Assembly (NCBI GenBank): GCA_031363085.1
Contig: JANLTU010000245.1
Location: 8,500 to 72,499 of the forward strand
Source of the DNA: Gammaproteobacteria bacterium
GTDB taxonomy: Bacteria > Pseudomonadota > Gammaproteobacteria > SG8-11
Direction of reading: 5' to 3'
DNA length: 64,000 nt
Each line of letters opens with the position of its first letter. The stretch's first letter is position 1. Shown in pieces: positions 10,201-47,507 of this stretch. The notes beneath the pieces were generated by a model that saw nothing but the letters and a program-made list of their open reading frames with translations, was not told where the DNA came from and did not search any database. The translations under genes were made by a program, and so were the position numbers.

Positions 10201-10236
10201 TTGAGTTTAGCGTTTATTCACTGACACACTGCGAGT

Positions 10237-10371: not shown

Positions 10372-10434
10372 GGCGTTACCTAACGAAGAATCTGTGAGAC
10401 ATTGTTATTGATGTCGTATTTTTAGGAGGGGCGC

Positions 10435-10464
10435 ACAGTACCGTAGGCATAGGCCGGCTGTCAA
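10435..10464 (-). promoter_or_regulatory. Sigma70 promoter for the rpmH operon
   Basis: Minus strand TTGACA (10464-10459), 18-bp spacer, TACTGT (10440-10435). Confidence 0.6.
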
Positions 10465-10497
10465 TTAAACATCAGTATTTACGGCAACCGGAAGGGG

Positions 10498-10506
10498 TGT
10501 GGATAA
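10498..10506 (-). promoter_or_regulatory. DnaA box in the dnaA promoter (autoregulation)
   Basis: TGTGGATAA is the reverse complement of the consensus TTATCCACA, about 70 bp upstream of dnaA. Confidence 0.85.
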
Positions 10507-10574
10507 GTTAATTTCAACAGTATAGACTCCGTGTTCTCCCACGCCCCACCGATCCAGATTGCGAGGTTACTGCT

Positions 10575-11924: not shown

Positions 11925-12120
11925 GTGATTAACTGTGGATAAGTTGTTAGTAGCGCAGTGTGCGTTAATTCAATCACAGGTTATACACAAGTAGTAAGTC
12001 GCTTTACGCATACGATATCAAGAGCAGGTTAAGGTCTATAACTTATTGAAATAAAAATTAATAAATTTAAATCAAGCAAGTTACTCTCAACGCCTATAGT
12101 AACTATAAAAGGTAAGACAT
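11925..12120. other. Probable replication origin oriC
   Basis: DnaA boxes TGTGGATAA (11934-11942) and TTATACACA (11981-11989), then an AT-rich tract at about 12040-12075; dnaA-dnaN intergenic position. Confidence 0.8.
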
Positions 12121-13221: not shown

Positions 13222-13326
13222 GTTTTTGTTTTTGAATTTATGCTTCTCGCACGGCATGTTCTATCTATCCGCACGTATGGTTCCGTTTTGCACATCAATA
13301 GCTTCTTGATAAGCCAGTGTTGTAGA

Positions 13327-13342
13327 TGTTCCACGTGAAACA
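13327..13342. promoter_or_regulatory. parS centromere-like site (ParB binding)
   Basis: TGTTCCACGTGAAACA matches the TGTTNCACGTGAAACA consensus; intergenic and about 1.3 kb from oriC. Confidence 0.9.
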
Positions 13343-13372
13343 TATTAACTCCAACCTCATTTATCGAACTAA

Positions 13373-15799
<2,427 letters not shown>

Positions 15800-18200: not shown

Positions 18201-19511
18201 ATGAGCACAGCGCCAACAATCTACGGAAAACATGTCGTGTTACGTGCTCTCGCTGAAATAGACCGCAGCGTAATGGAAGCGAAGCGAAGCTCTGAGTTCC
18301 TTCGAATGGTCGGGACCAACACCGACGAGGTTACAACACCCCATGAAGTGAGGAACGCCTTTGACCAAGCGCTTGCCGATCCTAATCCGTTACATTGGGT
18401 GGTAACTGTCCAGGGTCGCTGCATCGGTACGGCGTTTCTTCATTCGCTAGTGAAAAACGATCAAAGAGCGCGTTACGCCATCGGCATTTTCGAGCCGAGT
18501 GATTGGGGCAGAAATTTTGGTACCGAGACAACCCGCATCGTGCTGGATTACGCATTTGGACAATTGGGGCTACACCGCGTCGATGTGCGCGTGCTGGCGT
18601 ACAACCAACGGGCACTTCGTTGTTATGAAAAGTGCGGCTTCGTATCGGAGCGCGTTGAACGAGAAAGCGCGTGGGTCGACGGCCAATGGCACAACGATAT
18701 AATTATGGGAATCTTGGTGCACGAGCATTTACTCAAAGTAGCCAATTATTCAGCGCAGACTAACCCATCCAACACAACATCACAAAGAGTGATAACGAGA
18801 GGAGATAGCATGGGCGCACAGTGGAAAACCAAAATCAAGGAAGCCGCGTCCGGGACGAAGGGTCGGATCTTTACCAAGCTCGCCCGCGAGATCATGGTGG
18901 CGGCGCGTGCCGGTCCTGATCCGGACATGAACTCGCGCTTGCGCTTGGCGATTGAGCAGGCGAAGAAAGCCTCCATGCCGAAGGATACGGTTGAGCGCGC
19001 AATCAAAAAGGGAGCAGGTCTTGATGATTCTGGGGTGAGTTACCAGCGGCTGATTTACGAAGGCTTCGCGCCGCATAAGGTGCCGGTGATTGTTGAGTGC
19101 TTGACTGACAACGTGAATCGCACCATATCGAACATTCGCGCTTTGTTTCGCAAGGGGCATCTCGGCGCACTGGGATCGGTGTCGTGGGATTTCGACCACC
19201 TCGGCGTAATTGAAGCCACCCCGGAATCCCCGACTGCCGACGCCGAACTTGCCGCGATTGAGGCGGGCGCCCGCGACCTTGAGCCCGGCGAAAATGGCGC
19301 AACGCTGTTTCTGACCGAGCTCACCGACCTGGACGCGGTCACGCACGCGTTACCGAAATATGGTTTTATCGTGCAGACGGCGCAACTGGCCTACCGTTCC
19401 AAAAATCCGATGAAGCTAGCCGATGCGGAACGCGCCGAAGTCGAGGCTTTCCTCGAAGCCATTGATGGCGATGATGACGTGCAGAATGTGTTTGCAGGCT
19501 TGGCCGACTAA
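18201..19511 (+). CDS. In-frame ORF: RimJ/RimL-type GNAT acetyltransferase fused to a YebC/PmpR-family protein
   Basis: GNAT motifs ([27 protein letters not shown]) run without a stop codon into [20 protein letters not shown]. Confidence 0.7.
18810..19511 (+). CDS. YebC/PmpR family protein (internal start)
   Basis: Strong GAGGAG RBS before ATG 18810; [33 protein letters not shown]. Confidence 0.9.
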
Positions 19512-25467: not shown

Positions 25468-25557
25468 GAGGTGTCCGGGTGCCGTTATAGCGGGAGGTGG
25501 TCGAACCTGCCGCTGTTTGGGCAGCCTGCAAGTACAGAACACGATTATAGGTGACCG

Positions 25558-26595
25558 ATGGATATCGCAGAACTCCTGGCCTTCAGTGTTAAGAACGGTG
25601 CTTCCGATTTGCACCTGTCGGCGGGTGTGCCGCCGATGATTCGCGTCGACGGCGACATGCGCCGCATCAATCTGCCGGCGCTGGATCACAAGACCGTGCA
25701 CGGCTTGATTTACGACATCATGAACGACAAGCAGCGCAAGGACTACGAAGAATTTCTGGAAACCGATTTCTCGTTCGAGATTCCCAGTCTGGCGCGTTTT
25801 CGCGTGAACGCATTCAACCAGAATCGCGGCGCAGGCGCGGTGTTTCGCACCATTCCCACCAACATTCTTACGCTCGAAGAACTCGGCTGTCCGGCGGTAT
25901 TCAAGGAGATTGCCAAGAATCCGCGCGGGCTGGTGCTGGTGACCGGGCCGACCGGTTCGGGCAAATCGACCACGTTGGCGGCGATGGTGAACTTCGTCAA
26001 CGAGAGTGATTACGCGCATATCTTGACCATTGAAGACCCAATTGAATTCGTGCACGAAAGCAAAAAATGTCTGGTCAACCAGCGCGAGGTGCACCGCGAC
26101 ACGCTCGGTTTCGCTGAATCACTGCGCTCGGCCTTGCGCGAAGATCCCGATATCATTCTGGTCGGTGAAATGCGCGACCCGGAAACCATTGGTCTGGCGC
26201 TGACGGCGTCCGAAACCGGTCACTTGGTGTTCGGCACTTTGCACACCAGTTCGGCGGCGAAAACGGTGGACCGCATCATTGACGTGTTCCCGGCGGCGGA
26301 AAAAGAAATGGTGCGCTCGATGCTGTCGGAATCGATGCGCGCGGTGATTTCGCAGACGCTATTGAAAAAAGCCAGCGGCGGCCGCGTGGCCGCGCACGAA
26401 ATCATGGTCGGCACGCCGGCGATTCGTAACCTGATTCGCGAAAACAAAATTCCGCAAATGTATTCGGCGATCCAGACCGGGCAACAATACGGCATGCAAA
26501 CGCTGGATCAGAATCTGGCCGAGCTGGTGAAGAAAGGCGCGGTCAGCAAACAAGAGGCACGCACCAAGGCGGCGAACAAAGATTCCTTTAACTAG
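25558..26595 (+). CDS. pilT: Type IV pilus retraction ATPase PilT
   Basis: ASDLHLSAG, GPTGSGKST, TIEDPIE, AIRNLIRE motif. Confidence 0.98.
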   Translation: MDIAELLAFSVKNGASDLHLSAGVPPMIRVDGDMRRINLPALDHKTVHGLIYDIMNDKQRKDYEEFLETDFSFEIPSLARFRVNAFNQNRGAGAVFRTIPTNILTLEELGCPAVFKEIAKNPRGLVLVTGPTGSGKSTTLAAMVNFVNESDYAHILTIEDPIEFVHESKKCLVNQREVHRDTLGFAESLRSALREDPDIILVGEMRDPETIGLALTASETGHLVFGTLHTSSAAKTVDRIIDVFPAAEKEMVRSMLSESMRAVISQTLLKKASGGRVAAHEIMVGTPAIRNLIRENKIPQMYSAIQTGQQYGMQTLDQNLAELVKKGAVSKQEARTKAANKDSFN

Positions 26596-26688
26596 CAGCC
26601 TGTCGAGCTTAGGACGGCGGGGCTGCAATCAATGGAACTGACTAATGAAAAGACCAGGCCCCGCGTTTGCCGTGCGCGTGTATGAACA

Positions 26689-27828
26689 ATGAATAACGTC
26701 GAAGACTTCCACGCCTTGCTGCGCGCCATGGTCGAGAAGCAGGCATCCGACCTGTTCCTCACCGCCGGCCTGCCGCCGTGTTTGAAAGTTCACGGCAGTC
26801 TGCTGCCGATTGGTATTGAAACGCTCAGCCCCCATCAAGTGCGCGCGCTGGCGTATCAAATCATGAACGACGATCAACGCCACGAATTCGAAACCACCCA
26901 GGAATGTAATTTCGCGCTGTCGGACCCCAGCATCGGCCGCTTTCGCGTCAACGTGTTCGTGCAGAAATACCAAGTCGGCATGGTGCTGCGCAAAATCGAA
27001 ACTAGAATCCCAACGCTCGCCGATTTGCGCGCACCGCCGACGCTCGCTGAGCTGGCGATGAGCAAGCGCGGCTTGATCGTGATCGTCGGCGCCACCGGTT
27101 CGGGTAAGTCCACCACACTGGCGGCCATGATCGGCCACCGCAACCAGAACAGCAGCGGCCACATCATCACCATCGAAGACCCGATTGAGTTCATTCACGA
27201 ACATGTCGGCTGTGTGATCACGCAACGCGAAGTTGGCGTCGACACGCAGTCGTTTGAAAGCGCACTGAAGAACACGCTACGCCAAGCGCCGGATGTCATT
27301 TTGATCGGCGAAATCCGCACTCGCGAGACCATGTCGCACGCGATTGCATTTACCGAGACCGGACACCTGTGTTTTGCAACGCTGCATGCCAACAACGCCA
27401 ACCAAGCGTTGGACCGCATCGTCAACTTCTTCCCCGACGACCGCCGCAACCAATTGCTGCTGGATTTATCGCTCAATCTCAAGGCCGTGGTCGCCCAACA
27501 ACTGGTGCCCACGCCAGATCGTCAGGGCCGCCGCCTCGCGCTGGAAATTTTACTCAACACACCGCTGATGGCGCAGCTCATCCACAAGGGTGAATTCCAC
27601 AAACTCAAGGAAGTGATGAAGAAATCCACCACCCTGGGCATGCAGACCTTCGATCAGGCGCTGCTGCAACTGTACGAAGCCGCAGAAATTTCCTATGACG
27701 ACGCCCTGCACCACGCCGACGCGCCCAACGAGCTGCGCTTATTAGTCAAGCTCGGCAAAGACGGTGGCATCGACAAGCTGCAATCGGCGCTGGACGGAAT
27801 GGAGTTGATTGAGCCGCGCCGCACTTGA
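26689..27828 (+). CDS. pilU: Type IV pilus retraction ATPase PilU
   Basis: ASDLFLTAG, GATGSGKST, HANNANQALDRI, GMQTFDQAL; follows pilT. Confidence 0.93.
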   Translation: MNNVEDFHALLRAMVEKQASDLFLTAGLPPCLKVHGSLLPIGIETLSPHQVRALAYQIMNDDQRHEFETTQECNFALSDPSIGRFRVNVFVQKYQVGMVLRKIETRIPTLADLRAPPTLAELAMSKRGLIVIVGATGSGKSTTLAAMIGHRNQNSSGHIITIEDPIEFIHEHVGCVITQREVGVDTQSFESALKNTLRQAPDVILIGEIRTRETMSHAIAFTETGHLCFATLHANNANQALDRIVNFFPDDRRNQLLLDLSLNLKAVVAQQLVPTPDRQGRRLALEILLNTPLMAQLIHKGEFHKLKEVMKKSTTLGMQTFDQALLQLYEAAEISYDDALHHADAPNELRLLVKLGKDGGIDKLQSALDGMELIEPRRT

Positions 27829-27863
27829 TTTTACGACGAGTGCGGTCCCCTTGAGGCATGGGG

Positions 27864-28316
27864 TTAGGTGTCGTCGGTGCCCAGCGCCACGAATTCGCCT
27901 TCGAGCTGACCGGCAACTTGCCCGGCGTATTCGACAACGCAGGATACCGTGATTCTCGCCCGACCTTTGCGTTTCAACATGCGTGTGAATGACTCCCAGG
28001 CGGCTTCAGTCGCGATGAACGAACGCGCGGTGAACGTGCCCGAGATCGGCAGTGCGTAATGCATGGAGTTGCGCTGAATCACCAGGCGACTTGAAATACT
28101 CAAGCTCGCGAGACGTGTGTGGAGCAGTGACCACGCCGCCAAAATTGCTACCGCTGAGGCACTCCCGCCAAAGACCGTGTCGCGATGATTGATATTGGCA
28201 GCCAAGGGTGCGCTGAGCGTGACGCCTTCGGGTTGCACGCTGACAACCGAAACCTGCATCGCCTTGGACAGCGGGATGTGGTCGTATAAATATTTCTCAA
28301 GTTCGATGCAGTTCAT
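27864..28316 (-). CDS. YiiD C-terminal-type hotdog thioesterase
   Basis: IPLSKAM, APLAANINHRDTVFGGS, GKARI-like KGRARI. Confidence 0.85.
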   Translation of the reverse strand: MNCIELEKYLYDHIPLSKAMQVSVVSVQPEGVTLSAPLAANINHRDTVFGGSASAVAILAAWSLLHTRLASLSISSRLVIQRNSMHYALPISGTFTARSFIATEAAWESFTRMLKRKGRARITVSCVVEYAGQVAGQLEGEFVALGTDDT

Positions 28317-28383
28317 GATGACTCGCTTTGGCCCACAGGATGGGAAAAGGTTGCCTGCGTCGACCCGTCATCGACTTCAAGCG

Positions 28384-28451
28384 GCGCAGCGCTGTGTCCG
28401 CCCTGATCCCACGTACTAAATCGTGGGTTGTCGTGATCGCGAAACAACGCT
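28384..28451 (-). pseudogene. Relics of an older higB-higA toxin-antitoxin pair
   Basis: 28418-28451 encodes ALFRDHDNPRF (intact HigB: ALFRDQDNMRF, 33405-33438); 28384-28413 encodes RGIRADTALR (intact HigA: RGITADTALR, 33004-33033). Confidence 0.75.
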
Positions 28452-28460
28452 CAGAAGCTT

Positions 28461-28529
28461 TTAGCCGAAAACCGCTGACACATCAAACACCGGTCCATCT
28501 ACACACACCTGTTTCATCGCCACACCGGC
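28461..28529 (-). repeat. Third, displaced copy of the pyrK 3' end
   Basis: Encodes AGVAMKQVCVDGPVFDVSAVFG*, versus TGVYMKRVCVDGPVFDAQAVFS* in the intact gene. Confidence 0.88.
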
Positions 28530-28632
28530 GATTTGTAACCTGATTTGCGAAAACAAAATTCCGCTTATCGTCAGGGTCGCCCCCTCCTCGCGCTGGGAAT
28601 TTTACTCAGCTCACCGCTCGTGGCGCAGCTCA
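28521..28632 (+). pseudogene. Relics of duplicated pilT and pilU
   Basis: 28521-28564 matches pilT 26412-26455 at 41/44 nt; 28567-28632 matches pilU 27518-27580 with a 3-nt insertion and substitutions. Confidence 0.88.
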
Positions 28633-28665
28633 GCGGCGGCAAGCCATGCTCAGAAATAATCTGCT

Positions 28666-28682
28666 TTTAATGTTGAGTTAAC
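28666..28682 (+). promoter_or_regulatory. Possible QseB/PmrA-type binding box upstream of the multicopper oxidase
   Basis: TTTAAT-GTTGA-GTTAAC: TTAA direct repeat with 11-bp period. Confidence 0.4.
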
Positions 28683-28797
28683 TTGGACCCAAACCCACAA
28701 GTGTTATCAATGGCTTGCTTCACGTAAACCCTTAGACAGTAGATGCAAATCTGCGACCGGGGCGTGAGGCTATTTTCAACTCTATATAGGTGGGGCC

Positions 28798-30660
28798 ATG
28801 CAGAAAGTCAGAAATTCAAGTGCGGGAATTGCGCTGTTGGTTGTTACAGCGCAGGCATTTCCCGTGTTCGCCGCAGTTCCTTTGGACCCGTTGACGATTC
28901 CTAAATTCGTTACGCCGTTCGAGGTGCCACCGGCGTTCACGCCGATGCTATTGACCGATCCGGTGACGGGAGCAGTCACGAGTCATCTATACCAGATCAG
29001 TGTCACACAGTTTCAGCAACAGGTGCTGCCAGCCGGATTCCCCCAGACAACGGTGTGGGGCTATGGCGGAAACATGGTAGACGCCGCAGGTGTCAAGACC
29101 TACTACCAGCACTTCCCCGCCGCGACCATTAGCGCGACGCGTGGCGTTCCGGTCAATGTTCAGTGGGTGAACAATTTGGTGGACCCTGTTACCGGCGCGC
29201 CGCTTCCGCATTTATTTCCGGTCGACCCGACCCTGCATTGGGCCAATCCGAACAACATGGGCATGCCCATGCCGCCGTTCGCGCCTGAATACTTGGCGGC
29301 GCAGTCGCCGGTGCCCATCGTGACGCATTTGCACGGCGGCGAAGTGGAATCCGCCAGCGATGGAAATACGCAAGCGTGGTTTACGCCGAATCAGGTTTTG
29401 ACTGGGCCGTCGTTTGTGAAATCCCTTTATACCTATCCCAACACACAACCGGCAGCAACGTTGTGGTATCACGACCACACGCTTGGGATTACGCGTCAAA
29501 ACGTGTACGCGGGTCTGGCGGGTTTTTATCTGCTGCGCGATCCGGCCGATGTACTCGCCGCGCAATTGCCGTCCGGGAACTACGACGTTCCGCTCGTCAT
29601 TCAGGACCGTCTGTTCAACACCGACGGCTCACTGAATTTTCCCAGCGTTGGCGTGAATCCGGATATCCACCCGTATTGGTCGCCGGAAACATTCGGCAAC
29701 ACCATCGTCGTTAATGGCAAGACCTGGCCCAACATGAACGTGGAACGCCGCGCCTACCGGTTTCGTCTGTTGAACGGTTCCAATGCGCGGGTTTTCACAC
29801 TGTCGTTGTCCAATGGTAGATGGTTTACCCAGATTGCCTCCGACGGCGGTTATCTACCCGTACCTGCAAGACTGTCGTCGCTGACGCTCGCTCCCGGCGA
29901 GCGCGCCGAAGTCATCATTGATTTCTCTACCATGAATCCCGGCAGAATCATCGTTCGCAATAGCGCTGCTGCGCCGTTTCCTATTGGTGTAGCTGCCGAT
30001 CCGCTGACCGTCGGGCAAGTTATGCAGTTCACGGCGTTGCCCGGCAAGGCCGCAGGTACAAAGATTCCGGCGGTCTTGAATAGGATGCCTGCGCTTACCG
30101 CCAACGCGCCGACGCGCACGCTGACCTTGAACGAAGCGATGGGCCCACTCGGACCGGTTGCGGTGCTGTTGAACGGCCAGATGTATGACAGCGCCATTTC
30201 TGAGTTGCCGCGCGTGGGCGCTACCGAAATCTGGGAAGTCGTTAACACAACGGTGGATATGCATCCCATCCATCTGCATTTAGTGCAATTCCAGGTGCTC
30301 AACCGTCAAGCTTACAATACCGTTGGCTATGCCGCCGCGTGGGATGCCCTGAACGGTGGCGGCATGTTGCCGTTGATGACGCCGACCGTGCCTCTGTCGC
30401 CAGCCGCCTATCTGTTGGGGCCAGTCCAGCTTCCGGCGGCCTCCGAGCGCGGCTGGAAAGACACGGTCCGCATGAATCCTGGCGAAGTGACACGCATCAT
30501 GGTGCGTTATGCGCCGGTTGAGGCGCCAGTGGCGACAACTGTACCGGGTGTGAATCTCTACGCATTCAATCCAAGTGTCGGCCCGGGCTACGTGTGGCAT
30601 TGCCATATCCTGGATCATGAAGACAACGAGATGATGCGGCCGCTGCAAGTTTTGCCGTAA
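28798..30660 (+). CDS. Secreted multicopper oxidase (CotA / bilirubin oxidase-like)
   Basis: Copper motifs THLHG, WYHDH, HPIHLH, WHCHILDHEDNEM; N-terminal signal peptide. Confidence 0.93.
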   Translation: MQKVRNSSAGIALLVVTAQAFPVFAAVPLDPLTIPKFVTPFEVPPAFTPMLLTDPVTGAVTSHLYQISVTQFQQQVLPAGFPQTTVWGYGGNMVDAAGVKTYYQHFPAATISATRGVPVNVQWVNNLVDPVTGAPLPHLFPVDPTLHWANPNNMGMPMPPFAPEYLAAQSPVPIVTHLHGGEVESASDGNTQAWFTPNQVLTGPSFVKSLYTYPNTQPAATLWYHDHTLGITRQNVYAGLAGFYLLRDPADVLAAQLPSGNYDVPLVIQDRLFNTDGSLNFPSVGVNPDIHPYWSPETFGNTIVVNGKTWPNMNVERRAYRFRLLNGSNARVFTLSLSNGRWFTQIASDGGYLPVPARLSSLTLAPGERAEVIIDFSTMNPGRIIVRNSAAAPFPIGVAADPLTVGQVMQFTALPGKAAGTKIPAVLNRMPALTANAPTRTLTLNEAMGPLGPVAVLLNGQMYDSAISELPRVGATEIWEVVNTTVDMHPIHLHLVQFQVLNRQAYNTVGYAAAWDALNGGGMLPLMTPTVPLSPAAYLLGPVQLPAASERGWKDTVRMNPGEVTRIMVRYAPVEAPVATTVPGVNLYAFNPSVGPGYVWHCHILDHEDNEMMRPLQVLP

Positions 30661-30687
30661 CATTGCAGTGCCGAAGTTGATTTATCC

Positions 30688-30720
30688 ATGGGCCACGCTA
30701 ACGTGGCCCATTTTCTTTTT
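30688..30720 (+). terminator. Rho-independent terminator
   Basis: ATGGGCCACG-CTAA-CGTGGCCCAT followed by TTTCTTTTT. Confidence 0.85.
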
Positions 30721-30730
30721 GGGGGTGTAG

Positions 30731-31384
30731 ATGCGTATCTTGGTCGTGGAAGACGACGAGGCGCTGGGGAATGGTGTGCAGACCTGGTTACGTCTCAAAG
30801 GGTACTCCGTCGATTTATTCCGCGACGGTCATGCTGCGCAACAGGCGCTGAAAGCCGTCGCTTACCGCCTAGTGATTTTGGATCTTGGCCTGCCCACCAT
30901 GGACGGTCTGACCTTGCTGCGTTGGATACGGGATCGTGCCGACCTGACACCGGTGATGGTGATCACTGCGCGTGACACATTAAAAGATCGTCTGCGTGGT
31001 CTGGACGGCGGTGCCGATGACTACTTGGTGAAGCCCTTCGAAATGGAAGAGCTTGCCGCGCGTATCCGCGCGCTGGAGCGTCGACTTAACCAGCGCGCCA
31101 GCCCGCTGCTGTGTCACGGCCCGGTGGTACTGGACCCCGCCGCGATGACCGTAGCGCTGGACGGCGCGAAGCTGAACGTCTCGCGCCGCGAGTTCGTGGT
31201 GTTGCGCGAGTTGCTTGAAAACAAGGGGAAACCGGTGTCACGCGATCAACTTGATCACCTGCTCTATGCCTGGGGCGAAGAGGTTGAAAGCAACACCGTC
31301 AGTGTTCACATTCACAATCTGCGCAAGAAACTCGGTGAGAATTTTATCGTTACCCGGCGCGGGTTCGGTTACCTCGTGGTGTAA
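30731..31384 (+). CDS. OmpR-family response regulator (QseB/PmrA-like)
   Basis: MRILVVEDD, LDLGLP, GADDYLVKPF, ESNTVSVHIHNLRKKL. Confidence 0.93.
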   Translation: MRILVVEDDEALGNGVQTWLRLKGYSVDLFRDGHAAQQALKAVAYRLVILDLGLPTMDGLTLLRWIRDRADLTPVMVITARDTLKDRLRGLDGGADDYLVKPFEMEELAARIRALERRLNQRASPLLCHGPVVLDPAAMTVALDGAKLNVSRREFVVLRELLENKGKPVSRDQLDHLLYAWGEEVESNTVSVHIHNLRKKLGENFIVTRRGFGYLVV

Positions 31385-31387
31385 CTC

Positions 31388-32782
31388 ATGCACGTTTCGC
31401 TGCGGCGCCGCTTCCTGACAGTAATGCTGTCTGTGTTCTCAATGGCATGGATCGCCGCAACGGCTGGAATTTATCTCGACAGTTTTCACGAAACTGCGGA
31501 ATTGTTGGACGCGGAATTGCGGCGCACGGCCAGTGTCGTTATGGGAATGAGCCTGCACGAGTTGGAGGAGGAGCTGTTGTCGCGCGGTACCCGCACGCTA
31601 GACATCGCAGGATATGAAAATGTGGTCACCAGCGCTGAGGCGAAGATCGCGTTCCAGGTCTGGCTCGCCAACGGCCAGTTGGCGGTGCGTACCGATAACG
31701 CGCCGCTCACTCCGTTGCCCAGCACGACCGGCGGGTTTGTCGATTCCGCCGTAGGCAACGAATATTGGCGTGTCTACGCGTTGGTCGATGCACGTACCGG
31801 GATTACCGTTCGGGTGGGCGAGCATGAGAGCGTGCGCCATAAAATGTCGAGCGATGTCGCTTTTCGCACGGTGCTGTCGCTGATGGTAATCGTGCCCATC
31901 ATCGGATTGATGACGTGGATCGGCGTTGGCCGCGCAATGGAACCGCTGGGCCGCCTGACCGATCAGGTCGCACGCCGACAGCCCCACGACTTCAGTGCGG
32001 TCGGCCTCAAGGGTTCGCCGCGCGAGATCGAACCGTTAATCAACGCGCTGAACCGGTTGTTCACCTGCCTGAAACTGGCGTTCGAAAATACGCGTCGTTT
32101 CACCGCCGACGCCGCGCACGAACTGCGTACCCCGTTGAGCGCGATGGCGGTGCAAACCGACGTGGCGATACTGGCGACGGATGAGGAAGTGCGTGCTACA
32201 GCATTGAATTATTTGAAGAAATCGATTCGCGACATGACGCAATTAGTGCATCAATTGCTGACCCTCGCGCGCTGGGACGGCAATGTGATCGACCTGCACC
32301 GATGCCTCCTGAATCTTGCCGAGACCGTGCACGCGGTTGTGAGTAAACTGGAAGATCAGGCGCGTGCGCGGGATATCCGCCTTACTGTGACTGTCAGTGC
32401 CGAACCATTGCTGCTGGCGGATGAAACGGCCATCCATCTGGTGGTGCGCAATCTGCTCGACAACGCCATTCGCTATACCCCGGTCGGTGGCCAAGTGAGC
32501 GTGGAGGTTAATGTGGTCGCCGGATACGCTACGCTGCACGTGGCAGACACCGGGCCGGGCATTGCCCCGGAACAGCGTGAGCGGTTATTTCAGCGTTTTT
32601 ACCGCGCAGGACGCAGCGACGGCGGGGGTAGCGGGCTAGGTCTTTCGATCACGCAGCGCTGTATCGAACTGCATCAGGGTACTATCGAAATTGACAGCGC
32701 CGACGGTGGTGGGTTGGCCGTGACGGTGTATCTGCCGCTGCCAAAAACAGGAATCGGCGGACGTCCTTCAGCGAAATCCTGA
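31388..32782 (+). CDS. Sensor histidine kinase (QseC/PmrB-like)
   Basis: Two TM segments, EIFDAQL-like ELLDAEL, H-box ADAAHELRTPL, NLLDNAIRY, DTGPG, GSGLGL. Confidence 0.93.
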   Translation: MHVSLRRRFLTVMLSVFSMAWIAATAGIYLDSFHETAELLDAELRRTASVVMGMSLHELEEELLSRGTRTLDIAGYENVVTSAEAKIAFQVWLANGQLAVRTDNAPLTPLPSTTGGFVDSAVGNEYWRVYALVDARTGITVRVGEHESVRHKMSSDVAFRTVLSLMVIVPIIGLMTWIGVGRAMEPLGRLTDQVARRQPHDFSAVGLKGSPREIEPLINALNRLFTCLKLAFENTRRFTADAAHELRTPLSAMAVQTDVAILATDEEVRATALNYLKKSIRDMTQLVHQLLTLARWDGNVIDLHRCLLNLAETVHAVVSKLEDQARARDIRLTVTVSAEPLLLADETAIHLVVRNLLDNAIRYTPVGGQVSVEVNVVAGYATLHVADTGPGIAPEQRERLFQRFYRAGRSDGGGSGLGLSITQRCIELHQGTIEIDSADGGGLAVTVYLPLPKTGIGGRPSAKS

Positions 32783-32790
32783 AGTAGCGC

Positions 32791-32874
32791 TCACGAAAAT
32801 ACGCTGGCCGCATCAAACACCGGCCCATCCACACACACGCGCTTCATCGCCGCTTCGTGCTCGGTCTTGACTTC
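32791..32874 (-). repeat. Second, displaced copy of the pyrK 3' end (84 bp)
   Basis: Encodes EVKTEHEAAMKRVCVDGPVFDAASVFS*, same length as 33548-33631 (EVKTDTGVYMKRVCVDGPVFDAQAVFS*). Confidence 0.92.
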
Positions 32875-32877
32875 AAG

Positions 32878-33183
32878 TTAGGCTGCGTGACGATGTACAC
32901 GCTTCTCCACTTCCGCACCCACCGTGCGCTGGGCCAAGCGCAAGTCATAATCCGCCTGGAGTCCCATCCAAACTTCGGGTGATACGCCAAAGTATTTTCC
33001 CAGACGTAATGCCGTATCTGCCGTGATTCCACGCTTTCCGTTCACAATGGCGCTGATGCGCCCCGGCGGCACCACGATCTCGCGCGCCAAGCGGTTGATG
33101 CTGATGTCCATCGGCTGCATGAATTCTTCGAAAAGAATCTCACCGGGGTGGATTGGAGTAAGTAGTTTTGATTTAGCTGCCAT
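32878..33183 (-). CDS. higA: HigA-family antitoxin
   Basis: PIHPGEILFEEF, RGITADTALRL, WMGLQADYDL. Confidence 0.93.
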   Translation of the reverse strand: MAAKSKLLTPIHPGEILFEEFMQPMDISINRLAREIVVPPGRISAIVNGKRGITADTALRLGKYFGVSPEVWMGLQADYDLRLAQRTVGAEVEKRVHRHAA

Positions 33184-33191
33184 AGTTCACC

Positions 33192-33470
33192 TTAGTGGTA
33201 ATCGACTATTTCGACGTCGTAAGCATCTCCATCCTTCCAGCTAAAGCAAAGACGCCATTGGTCGTTGACGCGAACACTGTATTGTCCTTTGCGGTTGGCT
33301 TTAAGTGCTTCTAGACGGTTTCCCGGTGGTGCGCGCAGATCGTCCAGCACTTTTGCGCGATGCAGATACAGCAATTTGCGGCGTGCAACGCGTTCGATTG
33401 CTCGAAACCGCATATTGTCCTGATCGCGAAACAACGCTTCGGTATCGCTACAATTGAAGGATCGGATCAT
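33192..33470 (-). CDS. higB: HigB (RelE-family) toxin
   Basis: MIRSF, DLRAPPGNRLEAL, GQYSVRVNDQWR, C-terminal EIVDYH; toxin-first gene order. Confidence 0.93.
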   Translation of the reverse strand: MIRSFNCSDTEALFRDQDNMRFRAIERVARRKLLYLHRAKVLDDLRAPPGNRLEALKANRKGQYSVRVNDQWRLCFSWKDGDAYDVEIVDYH

Positions 33471-33483
33471 GATTGAGGTAGAC

Positions 33484-33508
33484 TATGACGCGCTGCGTAA
33501 TATGTAAA
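33484..33508 (-). promoter_or_regulatory. higBA promoter with HigA-type operator
   Basis: Imperfect palindrome TATGACGC-GCT-GCGTAATA next to a minus-strand TTTACA. Confidence 0.55.
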
Positions 33509-33547
33509 GCGATCTAGTCTATATTCCGGCTAGGAGATATGCCACAG

Positions 33548-34423
33548 TCAGCTAAAGACTGCCTGCGCATCAAACACCGGCCCATCCACACACACACGCT
33601 TCATGTACACACCGGTATCGGTCTTGACTTCTACGGTGCAACCCGCACAACCGCCAACGGCGCAGGCCATGAATTCTTCCAGCGATACTTGGCAGGGCAA
33701 GGCAAATTCGCCGGCCAGTTTAGCGGTGGCGTGCAGCATTGGGTGTGGGCCGCAGGCGAAGATTTCCACTTCGTTGCGTTGCGCGGGGGTCAGCGTGTTA
33801 AGCCAAGCGCGTGCGACATCGGTGACGTAGCCGTCGAAACAGCCGGGGTAATTTTGTTGGCTGGCGAGGCGGCTTGCGATGCCCCAGTCTTCCATTAACG
33901 GCATCGCGGCGATGACGCCGGGCGGCATGCCGGGCACGATGATATGCGAGGGCCGCGTGGTGAACGGGAACGGCACTTCCGAGCCCATGATGACGAATGG
34001 CTTGTAAGTTTTATCGGTGCGCAGATGCTCGGCCAGAAATACCATCGGTGGTATGCCGACGCCGCCACCGATCAGCAATGCGCGCGGCCGTTCGAGGTGC
34101 GGTGTGAACGGTACGCCGATGGGGCCAAGAATTGACAAACTCTCGCCGATTTTGCGCGTTGCGAGCAAGCGCGTGCCCTCGCCCAGGACTTTGTACAGAA
34201 AATCCACCCAGCCTTCCTGCGTGCTCACGCGCATGATCGACAGCGGCCGCCGCATCGGCAGCATGTCAGCGCAGCGGATGTGCACAAAGCTGCCCGGCTG
34301 CGCGCGCGCAGCGACACGCGGTGCATGGACACGCAACACGTATTGATCACCCGGATGCGCGCTGTGCGCGAGGATGTGCGCGTCGTCTTCGAGGCAGATG
34401 CTGTTGCGGTGGGGTTGGTTCAT
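33548..34423 (-). CDS. pyrK: Dihydroorotate dehydrogenase electron-transfer subunit (PyrK-like)
   Basis: RRPLSI, GGGVGIPP, ACGP, EEFMACAVGGCAGC..CVDGPVF [2Fe-2S] motif; start reset to ATG 34423. Confidence 0.88.
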   Translation of the reverse strand: MNQPHRNSICLEDDAHILAHSAHPGDQYVLRVHAPRVAARAQPGSFVHIRCADMLPMRRPLSIMRVSTQEGWVDFLYKVLGEGTRLLATRKIGESLSILGPIGVPFTPHLERPRALLIGGGVGIPPMVFLAEHLRTDKTYKPFVIMGSEVPFPFTTRPSHIIVPGMPPGVIAAMPLMEDWGIASRLASQQNYPGCFDGYVTDVARAWLNTLTPAQRNEVEIFACGPHPMLHATAKLAGEFALPCQVSLEEFMACAVGGCAGCTVEVKTDTGVYMKRVCVDGPVFDAQAVFS

Positions 34424-34450
34424 GACTTGTGCTCCGGCGGGTTTCGCACC

Positions 34451-34474
34451 AGGGTGCGGCAAGCAGCGCCCTAC
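34451..34474 (-). repeat. REP-like palindrome
   Basis: Minus strand GTAGGGCGCTGCTTGCCGCACCCT: GTAG tetranucleotide followed by a GC stem. Confidence 0.5.
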
Positions 34475-34476
34475 GT

Positions 34477-35751
34477 TTAATTTTGAAAGACGATGCGGCC
34501 GCCGACCAGCGTGTAACACACGCGCCCCTGTAATTCCCAGCCGCTAAAGGGGGTGTTGCGTCCTTGGCTGACGAGCTGGGTTTCGCTCACGGTCCAAAAC
34601 GCGTGCGGATCGTAGATACACAGGTCGGCGGCGACGCCGATGTTCAGCGTGCCGGCGTTGATGCCCAGAATCTTGGCGGGGCCGTAGGTTATGCGGTTGA
34701 TGAGGTCGCTGAGTCGCATGCCGGCTTCTTCGCCCGCGCGCAGACTCAGCGGCAACAAGGTTTCGAGCGCCGAGATACCGGGTTCGGTTTCGGCGAACGG
34801 CGCCAGTTTGGCGTCGGCGTCGTGCGGCTGGTGGTCGGAGCAGATCGCCGCGAGCGTGCCGCGCAAAAGTCCGGTGAGCAAGCCGGCACGATCACGCGCA
34901 CTGCGCAGTGGGGGCCGGATGTGACAATGGGTATTGAAGTCGGCGACGTCCATGTCGGTGAGGTGCAAATGGTGGGCGGTGACGTCGGTGCTGATCGGCA
35001 CGCCGTCGTATTGCACGCGTGCCACCATCTGCACCGCGCGCGCGGTCGACAGATTGCCGAAGTGGGCGCGCACGCCAGTCTGCTGGATCAGCAGCAGGTC
35101 GCGGCCCACCGCAACGGTCTCGGCGGTTTCCGGAATTCCGGTCAAGCCCAGGCGCACGCTCACCGCGCTTTCGTGCATCACGCCACCACCCAGCCAGGGA
35201 TCTTCGCTATGCAAAAATACCGTGAGATCGAGGCTCGCGGCGTATTCCAGCGCGCGGCGCATGACCTGGGTGTCGGTGATCGCATGGAGCGCGTTGCTGA
35301 CGCCGACGCAGCCGGCTTGTTTGAGCGCGTGCATTTCGGAAAGCTGCGTGCCCTGCAAGCCTTGCGTCAACGCACCTAATGTCACAACCCGCGCCTTGCC
35401 GGCAAGTCCAGCGCGGTGATGAATCAGATCGGCGACCGCCGGGTTGTCGATCACCGGGTCGGTGTCGGGCGGGCAGCACAGCGTGGTCACACCGCCCGCC
35501 ACCGCAGCCGCGCATTCGCTGGCGATGGTGCCTTTGTGTTCGTGGCCCGGTTCACGGGGACGCGCGCGCAAGTCCACTAGCCCGGGGCACAGCACCAAGC
35601 CGGCCGCTTCAATGACGTGTTCGGCGGCAAAACCCAGCGGCGCATGCAGCACGCCGGCGATGCGGCCGTCGGCAATCCACACGTCGCCGAGCTGGTCGAT
35701 TTGATTGGCCGGGTCGACGACGCGGGCACCGCGAATATGGATGCGTTTCAC
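34477..35751 (-). CDS. pyrC: Dihydroorotase-like protein, probably the inactive PyrC' partner of ATCase
   Basis: Amidohydrolase fold (PGLVDL..REPG, SDHQPH), but the metal-binding HxH is replaced by RAR. Confidence 0.88.
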
Positions 35752-43011: not shown

Positions 43012-43407
43012 GTGAGCGAAGCAGCAGAAGGCAGTTTGACCGGCATCAAAGTCATGGTCATCGACGACAGCAAGACCATTCGGCGTACCGCCGAAACCTT
43101 GTTGAAGAAAGAAGGCTGCGAAGTTATTACCGCGACCGACGGTTTCGAGGCGCTGTCGAAAATTACCGACCATCGTCCCGACATTATTTTCATCGACATC
43201 ATGATGCCGCGTCTGGACGGCTATCAAACCTGTGCATTAATTAAGCGCAACAAAAGTTACAAGGAAACCCCGGTAATTTTATTGACCAGCAAAGACGGCT
43301 TGTTCGACCGCGCGCGCGGACGCATCGTCGGCTCGGATCAATACCTTACCAAACCGTTTACGCGCGAAGAGTTGCTCGGCGCGATCAAACAATATGTACG
43401 TAAATGA
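43012..43407 (+). CDS. pilG: Twitching motility response regulator PilG
   Basis: IDDSKTIRRTAETLL, KDGLFDRARGRIVGS. Confidence 0.96.
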   Translation: MSEAAEGSLTGIKVMVIDDSKTIRRTAETLLKKEGCEVITATDGFEALSKITDHRPDIIFIDIMMPRLDGYQTCALIKRNKSYKETPVILLTSKDGLFDRARGRIVGSDQYLTKPFTREELLGAIKQYVRK

Positions 43408-43444
43408 CGCTTCATTAACTCATTTTGCGATGGGAGATTAAGTA

Positions 43445-43810
43445 ATGGCTACAGTGTTAATCGTCGATGACTCACCCACGGAAGTGCACGTGCTCAAAAC
43501 CATGCTGGAGAAAAACGGCTACAGCGTGATTTCTGCAACCAGCGGTGAGCAAGGTATCGCGGTGGCAAAAGAGCGTAAGCCCGACGTGGTGCTGATGGAT
43601 ATTGTCATGCCCGGGCTCAACGGCTTTCAGGCAACGCGCCAGCTCACCACCAATCCGGAAACCGCGCATATTCCGGTGTTGATCGTCACGACCAAAAATC
43701 AAGAAACGGATCGGGTCTGGGGCATGCGCCAAGGCGCGAAGGATTACCTCACCAAACCCGTGAGCGAACAAGAGCTCATCGGTAAAGTAAGAACCGTGCT
43801 CGGTGGCTAA
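43445..43810 (+). CDS. pilH: Twitching motility response regulator PilH
   Basis: VDDSPTE, NGFQATRQL, TDRVWGMRQGA. Confidence 0.96.
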   Translation: MATVLIVDDSPTEVHVLKTMLEKNGYSVISATSGEQGIAVAKERKPDVVLMDIVMPGLNGFQATRQLTTNPETAHIPVLIVTTKNQETDRVWGMRQGAKDYLTKPVSEQELIGKVRTVLGG

Positions 43811-43820
43811 GAGAAAAAAT

Positions 43821-44366
43821 ATGAGTCCGTCCGAGCAGCTCACGCCGTTCGATGTGTTGCGTCAACTCGAAAACGTTTACCAGCAGCGTGCGGCGGGGTT
43901 GCCGCAGCAACGCGCCACCACCAAGCCGTGGACCGGCATCGGGTTTCGCATCGGTGACGTGAACTTGGTGGCGGCGGTCGGCGATGTAAGCGAAATACTT
44001 TACTACCCGCGCTTGGCCGTGGTACCGGGGGCCAAAGGTTGGGTGCGCGGCGTTGCCAATATCCGCGGCACGCTGATGCCGATCATCGATCTCAAACACT
44101 ATTTGGGACAGGCGCCGGTTGATCTCAATGCGCGTTCGCGGGTGTTGATCATTCACTACGAAGAGCTTTGGGCGGGGCTGTTGGTGGATGCCGTGGCCGG
44201 CTTGAAACACTTTCAGCAAGACAACAGTCGTGCGGTCGCCGACGAATTGCACGCGACATTGAAGAATTATCTTGTCGGCGCATATCAGCACCAGAATACC
44301 GATTGGTATGTATTCAGTTTTAAGGATCTGGCCGAAAGTCCGGAGTTCGTACGCATCGCCGCATAA
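43821..44366 (+). CDS. pilI: CheW-like adaptor PilI
   Basis: WTGIGFRIG, VPGAKGWVRGVANIRG; position in the pil-chp cluster. Confidence 0.93.
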   Translation: MSPSEQLTPFDVLRQLENVYQQRAAGLPQQRATTKPWTGIGFRIGDVNLVAAVGDVSEILYYPRLAVVPGAKGWVRGVANIRGTLMPIIDLKHYLGQAPVDLNARSRVLIIHYEELWAGLLVDAVAGLKHFQQDNSRAVADELHATLKNYLVGAYQHQNTDWYVFSFKDLAESPEFVRIAA

Positions 44367-44458
44367 CTTTTAAACAGGCGGAGCGTGCGCGCGAGGAGCT
44401 AAAGATTTTTCCTATTCATCCGTAACCAGCAAGCAATGACCCATCGGGCTAGGGAGCC

Positions 44459-46549
44459 GTGAGCATGAAAAAGATTAAAAACATCAAAATGAAAGACGCG
44501 ATGGCCGCCGGCGGTGACGTTGTGTCACGACTGGTCGAGAACAAGCGGCAGGCGATTGTCGGTGGCGTGTTGCTGCTGCTGATTATCGCGATGGGTGCGA
44601 CCTTCCTGTATGTCGCGATCCAGTCCGGACACGACAAAGAATACATCAGCAAAACCGGTGAGCTGCGCGTATTGTCGCAAAACATCGTGAAAAACGCTGC
44701 CGAAGCTTCTTCGGCGCGTGTGGAAGCCTTCCCGTTGCTGAACGAGTCGCGCAATCATTTCGATACTATTTTAAGCAACCTGCAAACCGGCGACGCCGCG
44801 AAAGGCACACCGGCATCGCCGGCAGAGGTCGCCGCGCAACTGGAATCGCTGGTCGCGCGCTGGGCCGCCTTTCGGCAATACGCCGACCAGATTTTGAAAG
44901 CCGAAGGCGCGATCCGCCAGATCAACGAATTCGTCGCCCACATCAACAACTCCATGCCCAACCTGCTGGCGCTGTCCGACGAAGTCGTGCAGATCATGAT
45001 CGACATCAACGCCAAGCCGCAGCAGGTGTACATCGTCAGCCGCCAGTTGATGCTGTCGCAACGTATGTCGTTCAACGTCAGCAAGATTTTGCAAGGCGGT
45101 CAGGGTGCCGCCACCGCCGCTGATCGTTTCGGTCGTGACGCGGCACTTTTCGGTAAGGTTCTGGATGCCATGATCAAGGGCAACAAAGCCATGGGCATTC
45201 AAAAAATGACTGACCCGGACACCCTGGAAAAACTCCAGGAAGTGAACGAGGCGTATCTGGAAATTAGCGTGCTGGTGACGAAGATTCTGGAAAAGACGCC
45301 CGAGTTGTTCAAGGCGCAAGATGCCGCGAATGCGATGTTCACTAGTTCGGAAGATTTCTTGAAAGACGCCACCGCGCTGATGGGCAGCTACGTATTTTTA
45401 GGTGAAACGCGCGGCATCTACTCCGCCTTGGGCGGTATCTTCGGCGTGTTGTCGCTGGTCATGCTGGTATTCCTGGGCTACGAGCTCAATCGTGAAACCA
45501 CCAAGCGCCTGCGTGAAACCGAGGAACGTACTCGCGAAACCGAGCAGCAAAACAAAGAAAACCAACAGGCTATCATGCGCTTGCTGGATGAAATCGGCGA
45601 TCTGGCCGACGGTGACTTAACCGCCCACGCGACCGTCACCGAGAGTTTCACCGGCGCCATCGCCGACGCTATAAACTTCGCCATCGACGCGCTGCGTCAA
45701 TTGGTCACGACCATTAACGAAACCACGGTGCAGGTGTCGGCGGCCGCGCAAGAAACGCAGGCCACCGCGATGCATCTGGCGGAAGCGTCAGATCATCAGG
45801 CGCAGCAGATCACGGCGGTGTCGGCGGCCGTGAATCAAATGGCGGCGTCCATCGAACAAGTGTCCAACAACGCGATTTCATCCACCGAAGTGGCGCAAAA
45901 AGCCGTATCCATCGCCAACAAAGGCACGTCGGCAGTGCAGAACACCATCAAAGGTATGGACTCGATTCGCGAGACCATTCAAGAGACCTCCAAGCGCATC
46001 AAGCGTCTGGGTGAAAGCTCGCAGGAAATCGGCGACATCATCGAACTGATTTCCGACATCGCCGACCAGACCAACATTCTGGCCTTGAACGCCGCCATTC
46101 AGGCGGCCATGGCCGGCGACGCGGGGCGCGGCTTCGCGGTGGTGGCGGATGAAGTGCAACGCCTCGCGGAACGCGCCACCGATGCGACCAAGCAGATTGA
46201 AAGCTTGGTGCGCACCATTCAATCCGACACCAAAGAAGCGGTGGCGTCGATGGAACAAAGTACGGCGGGCGTGGTAAACGGCGCCAAGCTGGCACAAAAC
46301 GCCGGCGGCTCGCTGGAAGAAATCGAAACCGTGTCGAACCATCTGGCCGAAATCATTCAAAACATCACCGATGCCGCGCAACAGCAGGCGACGGCGGCGA
46401 CCAGCATTTCCGACACGATGAATGTCATTCAGGAAGTCACCACCCAGACCTCGGCCGGTACCAACGAAACGGCGGTGTCGATCGGTAATCTGGCGGAATT
46501 GGCGAATGAGCTGCGCAAGTCGGTTTCCGGCTTCAAGTTGCCTGCATAG
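44459..46549 (+). CDS. pilJ: Methyl-accepting chemotaxis protein PilJ
   Basis: Two TM segments, NQQAIMRLLDE, QTNILALNAAIQA..GRGFAVVADEV; start may be 44465. Confidence 0.95.
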   Translation: MSMKKIKNIKMKDAMAAGGDVVSRLVENKRQAIVGGVLLLLIIAMGATFLYVAIQSGHDKEYISKTGELRVLSQNIVKNAAEASSARVEAFPLLNESRNHFDTILSNLQTGDAAKGTPASPAEVAAQLESLVARWAAFRQYADQILKAEGAIRQINEFVAHINNSMPNLLALSDEVVQIMIDINAKPQQVYIVSRQLMLSQRMSFNVSKILQGGQGAATAADRFGRDAALFGKVLDAMIKGNKAMGIQKMTDPDTLEKLQEVNEAYLEISVLVTKILEKTPELFKAQDAANAMFTSSEDFLKDATALMGSYVFLGETRGIYSALGGIFGVLSLVMLVFLGYELNRETTKRLRETEERTRETEQQNKENQQAIMRLLDEIGDLADGDLTAHATVTESFTGAIADAINFAIDALRQLVTTINETTVQVSAAAQETQATAMHLAEASDHQAQQITAVSAAVNQMAASIEQVSNNAISSTEVAQKAVSIANKGTSAVQNTIKGMDSIRETIQETSKRIKRLGESSQEIGDIIELISDIADQTNILALNAAIQAAMAGDAGRGFAVVADEVQRLAERATDATKQIESLVRTIQSDTKEAVASMEQSTAGVVNGAKLAQNAGGSLEEIETVSNHLAEIIQNITDAAQQQATAATSISDTMNVIQEVTTQTSAGTNETAVSIGNLAELANELRKSVSGFKLPA

Positions 46550-46595
46550 CCCGGTCGCGGTGCGTGGGTGTAACTAACGCAAAAGGTAGCGACGC

Positions 46596-47498
46596 ATGGC
46601 GATCGCGATAGCCCTCATGAGCGCGGTGGCGATTCCGGAAATTATGCAAACCAGCATTGATGACCAAGAATTTGCGCTGTGGACTGAGCTGTTGGGGCGA
46701 CGTATCGGCTTGCGCGATAGCGCCGTGCGTAAAGCGTTTTTGCTGCAATGCATCGAAACACGTGTGCGCAAACGCGGCTTTGCATCGCGGCGCGCCTATT
46801 TCGATTTGTTGCGCGCGCATTCCGGAAATGACGAAGAATGGGACAGCCTGATCGACCTGCTGCCGCTGCATGAAACACGTTTTTTGCGCCATGCCAGTTC
46901 GTTGGCCTTGCTCACCGGCTATATTCAGCAGCGTTGTGCTGCGGAAAAAAAACGCCCCACTACGTTGACTGCCTGGAGTGCAGGTTGCTCCACCGGCGAG
47001 GAAGCGTATTCGTTGGCCATCGTTATGGATCAAGCCCTCGCATCCATCGAGCCGCGTCCGCGCATCAACGTGATCGGCAGCGATCTGAGTCGTAACTCGC
47101 TGAACAAGGCGCGACACGGTAGTTATCAACGGCGCCAACTCACCAATCTGAGCCCGGCTCAGATCGCGCAATATTTTGATCAAGTCGACGGCGAAACCTT
47201 CATCGTTAAAACGACGTTACGTGAACGCACGCAATATCTGTCGATCAATTTGCACGAGCTGGACAGCGGCAACAGCGGTATGGTTGGCCCGGTGGACATT
47301 GTGTATTGCCAGAATGTGTTGATTTATTTCGACAATGCCGAACGTGAACGCATCGTCAATCAGTTGGCCGAGCATGTCGCGCCGGGCGGTGTGCTGGTGC
47401 TGGGCGGCGGCGAGTTGTTGCGCTGGAACCGGCCCGAGTTCAAACGCATCGCAACCGACGACACACTGGCATACAAAAGATTATCGGCACTCATTTAG
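46596..47498 (+). CDS. pilK: CheR-type methyltransferase PilK
   Basis: HETRFLRH, WSAGCSTGEEAYSLA, CQNVLIYF; exact start uncertain. Confidence 0.9.
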   Translation: MAIAIALMSAVAIPEIMQTSIDDQEFALWTELLGRRIGLRDSAVRKAFLLQCIETRVRKRGFASRRAYFDLLRAHSGNDEEWDSLIDLLPLHETRFLRHASSLALLTGYIQQRCAAEKKRPTTLTAWSAGCSTGEEAYSLAIVMDQALASIEPRPRINVIGSDLSRNSLNKARHGSYQRRQLTNLSPAQIAQYFDQVDGETFIVKTTLRERTQYLSINLHELDSGNSGMVGPVDIVYCQNVLIYFDNAERERIVNQLAEHVAPGGVLVLGGGELLRWNRPEFKRIATDDTLAYKRLSALI

Positions 47499-47507
47499 GA
47501 TTCAATT

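Follow-up and report, generated by a model that had tools for sequence, protein, structure and literature searches.

Three pyrK-like gene ends and three cargo blocks stacked between pilU and a pyrK-like gene in an uncultured sediment bacterium

In an uncultured sediment bacterium of the Gammaproteobacteria, the 3' end of a pyrK-like gene occurs three times in one short interval, each time beside different cargo genes. We analysed this interval within a window of 64,000 nucleotides (nt) (G000:C3:8500-72499), where G000 denotes the source metagenome-assembled genome (MAG; 266 contigs, 4.3 Mb, 97% complete) and G001 to G005 denote genomes of the same genus (sister species). All positions below are those of the window. 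The left conserved flank of the interval consists of pilT (25558-26595, plus strand; Pfam T2SSE, 1.5e-53), which is 98-99% identical in amino acid sequence to its G001 and G005 orthologues, and pilU (26689-27828, plus strand; Pfam T2SSE, 3.1e-41). The right conserved flank is the intact pyrK-like gene, which is convergent with pilU (33548-34423, minus strand, 291 residues, or 323 residues in a longer open reading frame (ORF) to 34519) and carries the Fe-S binding domain PF10418. We call the gene pyrK-like because it scored only 135 bits against an NCBIfam PyrK equivalog cut-off of 314, and the Fe-S domain alone passes. The protein is 85-89% identical to its same-genus orthologues.

Between these flanks lie three cargo blocks. 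The first consists of a YiiD_C-type thioesterase gene (27864-28316, minus strand; PF09500, 9e-43; TIGR02447, 3e-41). The second, on the plus strand, comprises genes for a multicopper oxidase with three Cu-oxidase Pfam domains (28798-30660), an OmpR-type response regulator (30731-31384) and a QseC/CopS-like histidine kinase (31388-32782), the last two identified by Pfam, with the best NCBIfam names all below their cut-offs. The third, on the minus strand, is an intact type II toxin-antitoxin pair, i.e., a gene for a RelE-fold, HigB-like toxin (higB, 33192-33470; PF05015, 1.4e-17, above cut-off) followed by a gene for a helix-turn-helix HigA antitoxin (higA, 32878-33183; TIGR02607, 5e-32, above cut-off). 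The GC content of the cargo (0.51-0.62, vs 0.55-0.68 in the flanks) was not diagnostic, and scans for terminators and promoters gave signals at or below the expectation from shuffled sequence.

All three pyrK-like ends lie on the minus strand, in one orientation and at the positions given by a first-pass annotation made from the letters alone, and both repeat and genome-wide searches recovered them. The intact gene (copy A, its last 84 nt, 33548-33631) ends in ..GVYMKRVCVDGPVFDAQAVFS and a stop codon. Relic B (32791-32874; 84 nt, in frame and with its stop) translates as EVKTEHEAAMKRVCVDGPVFDAASVFS and a stop, and relic C (28461-28528; ~66 nt including the stop) as ..GVAMKQVCVDGPVFDVSAVFG and a stop. 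Both relics fall inside the Fe-S domain, which occupies residues 281-321 of the 323-residue ORF, and their last cysteine is presumably a cluster ligand. When a 93-nt query from copy A was searched against the whole genome, only B (E 9e-15) and C (E 1e-7) were returned, the next matches having E values of at least 0.65; no fourth pyrK-like end was found genome-wide, although the MAG is 97% complete and a contig bearing one could be missing. In the repeat search, A and B were 85% identical, and C and B 61% over 66 nt; within the window, blastn-short aligned 39 nt (97% identity, E 6e-15) and 28 nt (93% identity, E 6e-6). An identical run of 29 nt is common to A and B (33565-33593 and 32808-32836, respectively), while C differs inside this run (83% to A over 48 nt). 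The outer boundaries of the repeats are unequal, lying at about -66 from the stop in C and at -84 in B.

The relics are closely packed against their neighbours. The inner edge of relic B lies 3 nt from the higA stop (32878-32880) and its own stop lies 8 nt from that of the histidine kinase gene (32780-32782), in agreement with the adjacency first described. The higA stop is also in frame with relic B, one codon apart (32875-32880), such that readthrough would extend HigA by 28 residues (1 + 27); this arrangement is probably a coincidence. Relic C is preceded by remnants of higBA, another feature that had been read correctly from the letters. The higB remnant (higB', 28419-28455, minus strand, collapsed) is identical to intact higB at 23 of 24 nt (96%; 28428-28451 vs 33415-33438), and also matched higB in a tblastx search. 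The higA remnant (higA', 28376-28414, minus strand, collapsed) is weak, matching the window higA (32996-33034) with an E value of 0.003 and G001 higA with 2e-5 in tblastx. The order and orientation of these remnants match those of the intact higA-higB-pyrK row. The first-pass annotation had placed relic C correctly, but the clean 69-nt end that it described was not found: homology to pyrK stops ~66 nt from the stop and gives way to a fragment of pilT. This fragment (pilT', 48 nt, 28516-28564, plus strand; 92% to 26408-26455), and a pilU fragment that starts 2 nt beyond it (pilU', 66 nt, 28567-28632, plus strand; 85% over 66 nt to 27518-27580, E 5e-15, or 87% over 54 nt in the repeat search), had gone unnoticed. 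Since relic C is thus accompanied by pilT' and pilU' on one side and higA' and higB' on the other, the units appear to be collapsed copies of the whole pilT..pyrK locus, and not arms of an element. On this evidence, the array looks like three versions of that locus placed in succession, deletions having collapsed what was redundant.

Such an array might have arisen without any foreign DNA, if illegitimate recombination had duplicated in tandem, within the genome, a segment that starts in the 3' part of pilT and extends as far as the pyrK 3' end, the redundant copies then decaying while cargo was gained and lost differentially. The junction between relic C and pilT' is exactly the novel joint that such a duplication would create, and the repetition of the intact gene order in higA'-higB'-pyrK' is as it would predict. 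The junction lies within an 8-nt sequence, CACRCCGG (plus strand), that is exactly common to the resident pilT and to the pyrK alleles of G001 and G005. The fragments themselves look neutrally decayed, with three of the four changes in pilT' being non-synonymous and one indel in pilU', as neutral decay of redundant copies would predict. Joint B does not have the form of a simple duplication joint, because relic B has no copy of higBA on its left, where the kinase gene ends instead, its stop at a distance of 8 nt. Here the pyrK sequence breaks off at -84 (..GACTTC|TAC..) at a 4-nt microhomology, CTTC, with the sequence downstream of higA, which in G005 reads ..GGCTTC|AAGTTA.., as it does in the window. 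Both microhomologies were judged with proxy parents, i.e., G001 and G005 sequences and the resident pilT. There is also no cargo common to the three units.

The ends were also compared codon by codon. Between relic B and A, 20 of 84 nt differ, affecting 3 codons synonymously and 7 non-synonymously, yet B keeps its frame, its stop and the conserved residues. The non-synonymous changes all fall in variable stretches (DTGVY/EHEAA and QA/AS), while 13 conserved residues are retained in B, and the final serine is encoded by AGC in A and by TCG in B. The alleles nearest to B were those of G003 (48/57) and G002 (47/57; 21/27 in the upstream part), with A itself at 46/57 (18/27 upstream); the alleles nearest to A were those of G005 (53/57) and G001 (51/57). 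Because its changes are confined to variable positions and its nearest alleles are those of G003 and G002, B reads as an end that evolved within a working gene in another lineage or allele class, not as a decayed copy of A. Relic C differs from A at 17 of 63 nt, with 7 synonymous and 5 non-synonymous codons, a synonymous share exceeding that under neutral decay; it also carries R>Q and A>V changes at positions otherwise conserved in the relatives compared. This suggests that C originated as a functional allele and then underwent some neutral decay. The proposal that the copies are alleles rather than simple duplicates was thus borne out, and we regard tandem duplication in place as unlikely.

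A further possibility was that the array is an artefact, i.e., a chimera in which strains with different cargo had been stitched together via the shared pyrK-end repeat. The genome is, after all, a MAG in 266 contigs, and the G004 contig stops within pyrK at residue 268. We therefore compared Logan contigs (k=31-type, not raw or long reads) with positions 25500-34600. A single 6627-nt contig from run X1, possibly the source sample, covered the array from 27163 to 33789 with a uniform depth of 19.7 and four differing letters. From a further sample of that study, run X3, contigs spanning 27163-28667, 30055-32948 and 32933-33640 crossed joint C, joint B and the higB-pyrK spacer, respectively. Run X5 belongs to a different study, and one of its contigs (1320 nt, 28130-29449, with 33 letters differing) crossed the region from the thioesterase gene through relic C, pilT' and pilU' to the oxidase gene. 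Since this contig crosses it, joint C is common to a population that is ~2.5% diverged (~97.5% identity). In the second study, an X5 contig ends within relic B at 32836, and X5 and X8 have no listed cover in parts. The joints have only 4-8 nt in common with their would-be partners, which is too short to mislead a k-mer assembler. A chimeric assembly, which the first-pass annotation had named as the outcome that would overturn its account, is therefore very improbable.

Other samples did reveal variation at the same place, which is the remaining point in favour of a chimera. Run X8 has joints 27818>32807 and 27821>32867, connecting the end of pilU to the 29-nt pyrK run or to the end of higA; with short sides of 29 and 32 nt, and the letters between them not known, these hint at alternative alleles. 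In run X5, one contig has, in place of higB (window 33192-33547), 26 letters that match the spacer downstream of pyrK in G001. The second study also holds a population with ~90%-identical higBA.

Comparison with relatives, which the first-pass annotation had proposed for the pilU-pyrK interval, established that it is a variable hotspot. In 55 of 92 related loci, pyrK is followed downstream by a convergent pilU, with stop-to-stop distances ranging from 9 to 5268 bp, and of 141 bp or less in 23; taking all the genomes compared, intervals span 9 bp to 5.7 kb. Within the genus, pilT-pilU is convergent to pyrK in all four readable genomes, and the cargo is different in each. In G001, the interval is tight and without a relic (pilU, higA-higB, pyrK); G002 has a ParE-type pair, and G003 a TonB_C gene. 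In G005, pilU is followed by a TonB_C gene, a 33-nt relic of a pilU 3' end, higA-higB (higB being frameshifted) and pyrK. This relic (locus L039, G005:C33, 5421-5476, between TonB_C and higA) is identical to the end of G005's own pilU at 27 of 33 nt and, judged by its sequence, shows a mirror-image scar at the opposite flank. The G004 contig, ending inside pyrK as described above, with no pyrK end assembled elsewhere, was uninformative. The expectation that duplicated ends would recur in relatives was met only weakly: 93 sequences were searched, of which 3 lacked a pyrK end, and among the other 90 a pyrK-end relic was found in 2, i.e., the window and locus L106, while a pilU-end relic was found at 1 of 54 loci. 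In L106, whose pyrK is 66% identical, the relic (9000-9035, ..RICVDGPVFDA and a stop) lies 127 nt downstream of the intact stop, and beyond it are an ORF of unknown family, a Usp gene, a membrane protein gene and then pilU. In the distant locus L088, a multicopper oxidase gene (9794-11587) occupies the pilU/pyrK interval in the opposite orientation.

Same-orientation repeats of a gene 3' end bounding cargo are also the topology described for site-specific accretion of cis-mobilizable elements (CIMEs), in which entry occurs at a gene end (PMC5704250). By analogy, the 3' end of the pyrK-like gene would be an att site, at which a recombinase, supplied in trans or since lost, had stacked integrase-less remnants bounded by attL and attR. 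The identical 29-nt run in A and B would fit a core of this kind, as would the occurrence of two relics in one genome despite their low base rate. The search for a recombinase at the locus was negative. We scanned 41 cargo ORFs from 23 loci (from 56 listed, 16 were dropped, being higBA of G001 and G005 or short or overlapping, and 1 corrected ORF was added), and none of the 41 matched an integrase, transposase or other recombinase family; 14 of them, however, had no Pfam family, and an unrecognised recombinase among these is possible. In the window we scanned 49 of the 54 non-overlapping ORFs of at least 90 residues, together with pilT, the remaining five being named by reading alone; none of the 49 matched a recombinase family, and there was no tRNA in the window, as first claimed. 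An integrase with a matching att core elsewhere in the genome, for which a search had been suggested, was not found: the genome has 8 matches to the tyrosine recombinase family PF00589, none of them on this contig, and no recombinase stands beside any pyrK-like end in the genome, there being only the three copies, in a MAG whose 97% completeness means that a contig may be missing. The pyrK end motif was found on 0 IMG/VR contigs; plasmids gave only distant higBA matches, none reaching the pyrK ends, and phages no match.

The structure of the relics is also at odds with such accretion. An end formed by an element arm and a host gene end should be a hybrid, and relic B failed this test, since it resembles the native G002/G003 allele upstream as well as downstream of the 29-nt run. 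The repeat boundaries differ (~-66 and -84) and lie within microhomology to local chromosomal sequence, one block ends in fragments of pilT and pilU, and G001 has higBA at the same place without a relic. We consider CIME-like accretion improbable. To the same low degree we would credit a variant in which the pyrK-like 3' end is a recurrent insertion site of integrase-less cassettes, the relics being att scars of a new cassette system; the recombinase or host function serving them would, in this doubtful case, have its gene elsewhere or be one of the cargo ORFs that lack a known family. Pointing to cassettes are the two relics against a base rate of ~2/90, the 29-nt run in A and B, and the independent relic in L106.

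We think it rather probable that alleles of the whole interval, from related genomes, were concatenated by recombination that was homologous on one side and illegitimate on the other, in the manner of homology-facilitated illegitimate recombination (HFIR), at a hotspot free of integrase. An HFIR-type origin had been suggested at the outset, and it is in keeping with the microhomologies of 8 nt and 4 nt found at the joints, and with the pilT' and pilU' fragments. The first allele would have contributed the thioesterase gene, the higA'B' relic and pyrK end C; the second the pilT' and pilU' fragments, the oxidase, regulator and kinase genes and pyrK end B; and the third higBA and the intact pyrK-like gene. 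These alleles would have been joined end to end rather than replaced. On one side of each event there would be an illegitimate joint guided by microhomology, and on the other a homologous crossover in a conserved flank; the incoming DNA would be chromosomal DNA of related species. Only events that supplied a complete replacement end, or spared the resident one, would survive. The persistence of displaced ends as in-frame relics would follow from this, because survivors must keep or receive a complete Fe-S domain (the last 43 residues). As to how the DNA may have entered, the neighbouring pilTU genes had been put forward as a pointer to natural transformation, but they are no evidence for it; ComEC and DprA are present, but the same families match in 10 and 11 of 14 control genomes, respectively, and are uninformative. 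Mixed or unrecognised histories account for the remaining probability.

The order of the events is a separate matter. The first-pass annotation envisaged an anchor in pyrK, with the newest block beside pyrK and older cargo pushed outward, and this agrees with the stronger decay around joint C. Against it, the adjacency of higBA and pyrK is common to G001 and G005, and per 100 nt higBA is 79-95 identical vs 74-94 for pyrK-pyrC-pyrB; because this adjacency exists at core-like divergence, higBA need not be the newest block, and the proposed order was not established. The relics may equally well be gene ends of the donor that were co-transferred, with the anchor in pilT/pilU; the order would then be reversed, and pilT' and pilU' would be the remains of the original resident genes.

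Several findings count against concatenation of foreign alleles. No parental allele came to light: a metagenome scan with the pyrK-like protein yielded 80 loci, all 74% identical or less, with no same-genus contig among them, and neither of the expected parental arrangements (pilU, oxidase, response regulator, histidine kinase and pyrK of type B; or pilU, thioesterase, higBA and pyrK of type C) was present in any sampled genome. Sliding-window identity of both flanks to G001-G005, a comparison for excess homologous recombination made with few and distant genomes, revealed no clear breakpoint, and the left flank was flat. Taken alone, the 4 nt of microhomology at joint B carry little weight, and junction support consisted of contigs instead of raw or long reads. 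Relics at both flanks are rare (2/90 and 1/54), and two pyrK-end relics in one genome exceed the expectation for independent rare events. Finally, the 14 cargo ORFs without a Pfam family leave room for an unrecognised recombinase. The flank analysis did show the allele type changing over the final ~100 nt of pyrK, which are 92 and 90 identical to G005 and G001, respectively, vs 78 and 77 to G002 and G003. The oxidase had no close orthologue in 11 other genomes of the order; its best relatives among 75 genome loci were 64% identical or less, mostly from Bacillota and archaea, and gave no donor locus. The thioesterase was not found in the five same-genus genomes, in a search that had no positive control.

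The rest of the window contains other features of interest. The hotspot lies ~20 kb from dnaA, which belongs to a replication-origin gene row (9793-15799) with rnpA, yidC and mnmE on one strand and dnaA, dnaN and gyrB on the other. Between pdxA and surA (1014-2893, minus strand) are a 247-residue ORF of unknown family and an AAA_21/AAA_15 ATPase (Pfam name, putative AbiEii toxin), which looks like another small insert, accessory or defence-like, among genes whose order is conserved. A 436-residue ORF (18201-19511, plus strand) joins an N-terminal GNAT acetyltransferase domain to a YebC/TACO1 regulator; either the two are fused or the ORF was called too long. A chemosensory cluster of the Pil-Chp type (43012-55177) encodes a receiver protein, CheW, a PilJ-type methyl-accepting chemotaxis protein, CheR, a ChpA-like kinase of 2031 residues with four Hpt stretches, CheB and a further CheW.

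Integrase-free hotspots are widespread, and how gene content enters them is mostly inferred from statistics, whereas here the scars are legible. Integrase-free hotspots flanked by core genes, with turnover by recombination in those genes, were described by Oliveira et al. (2017; PMC5635113), and our locus resembles them in being a fixed spot between syntenic core genes, with variable cargo and no integrase or mobile element. In the model of that paper, the content is exchanged by double homologous recombination, and no scar remains. In our locus, blocks have been added side by side, with displaced gene ends and microhomology at the joints, and at least one side of each event would therefore be illegitimate. 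The scars, namely displaced in-frame gene ends, pieces of the gene at the opposite flank and joints with microhomology, show that one-sided recombination can add blocks instead of a double crossover swapping them; in a sister species (G005), the other flank bears a scar of this kind.

In HFIR, foreign DNA is integrated via one homologous anchor and microhomologies of 3-10 bp (de Vries & Wackernagel 2002; Prudhomme et al. 2002; Meier & Wackernagel 2003; see the summary in PMC6382021). The 8-nt and 4-nt microhomologies in the window lie within that range. Whereas HFIR, as summarised there, was defined in laboratory transformation assays, here it is inferred from scars in an uncultured genome, and the "foreign" DNA was apparently the same locus of related species, giving heterologous tandem copies. 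The fragments pilT' (48 nt) and pilU' (66 nt) are of the same size class as the short ectopic stretches inserted at microhomologies in SPDIR (short-patch double illegitimate recombination). Unlike the isolated microindels of that process, however, they stand in locus order beside kilobase-scale cargo, and an origin as remnants of deleted full-length copies fits better.

Tandem accretion of CIMEs and integrative and mobilizable elements at a gene 3' end (Pavlovic et al. 2004; reviewed in PMC5704250) shares with our locus the same-orientation gene-3'-end repeats between integrase-less cargo blocks and the intact target gene. It differs in that our locus has no cognate recombinase and no remnants of transfer or mobilisation functions, while having unequal repeat boundaries, a non-hybrid relic and chromosomal pilT and pilU fragments. 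A limited literature search found no description of stacked gene-end relics at a pilU/pyrK site. If the parental alleles were found in the same sediments, the array would allow successive transfers in an uncultured lineage to be dated, and would offer a natural setting in which to test HFIR beyond laboratory assays; failing that, it is an instructive illustration of processes already known. Compared with the systems above, we regard the locus not as a new system but as a natural example of those processes, which stands out because its scars are so clear and because three alleles are stacked in it.

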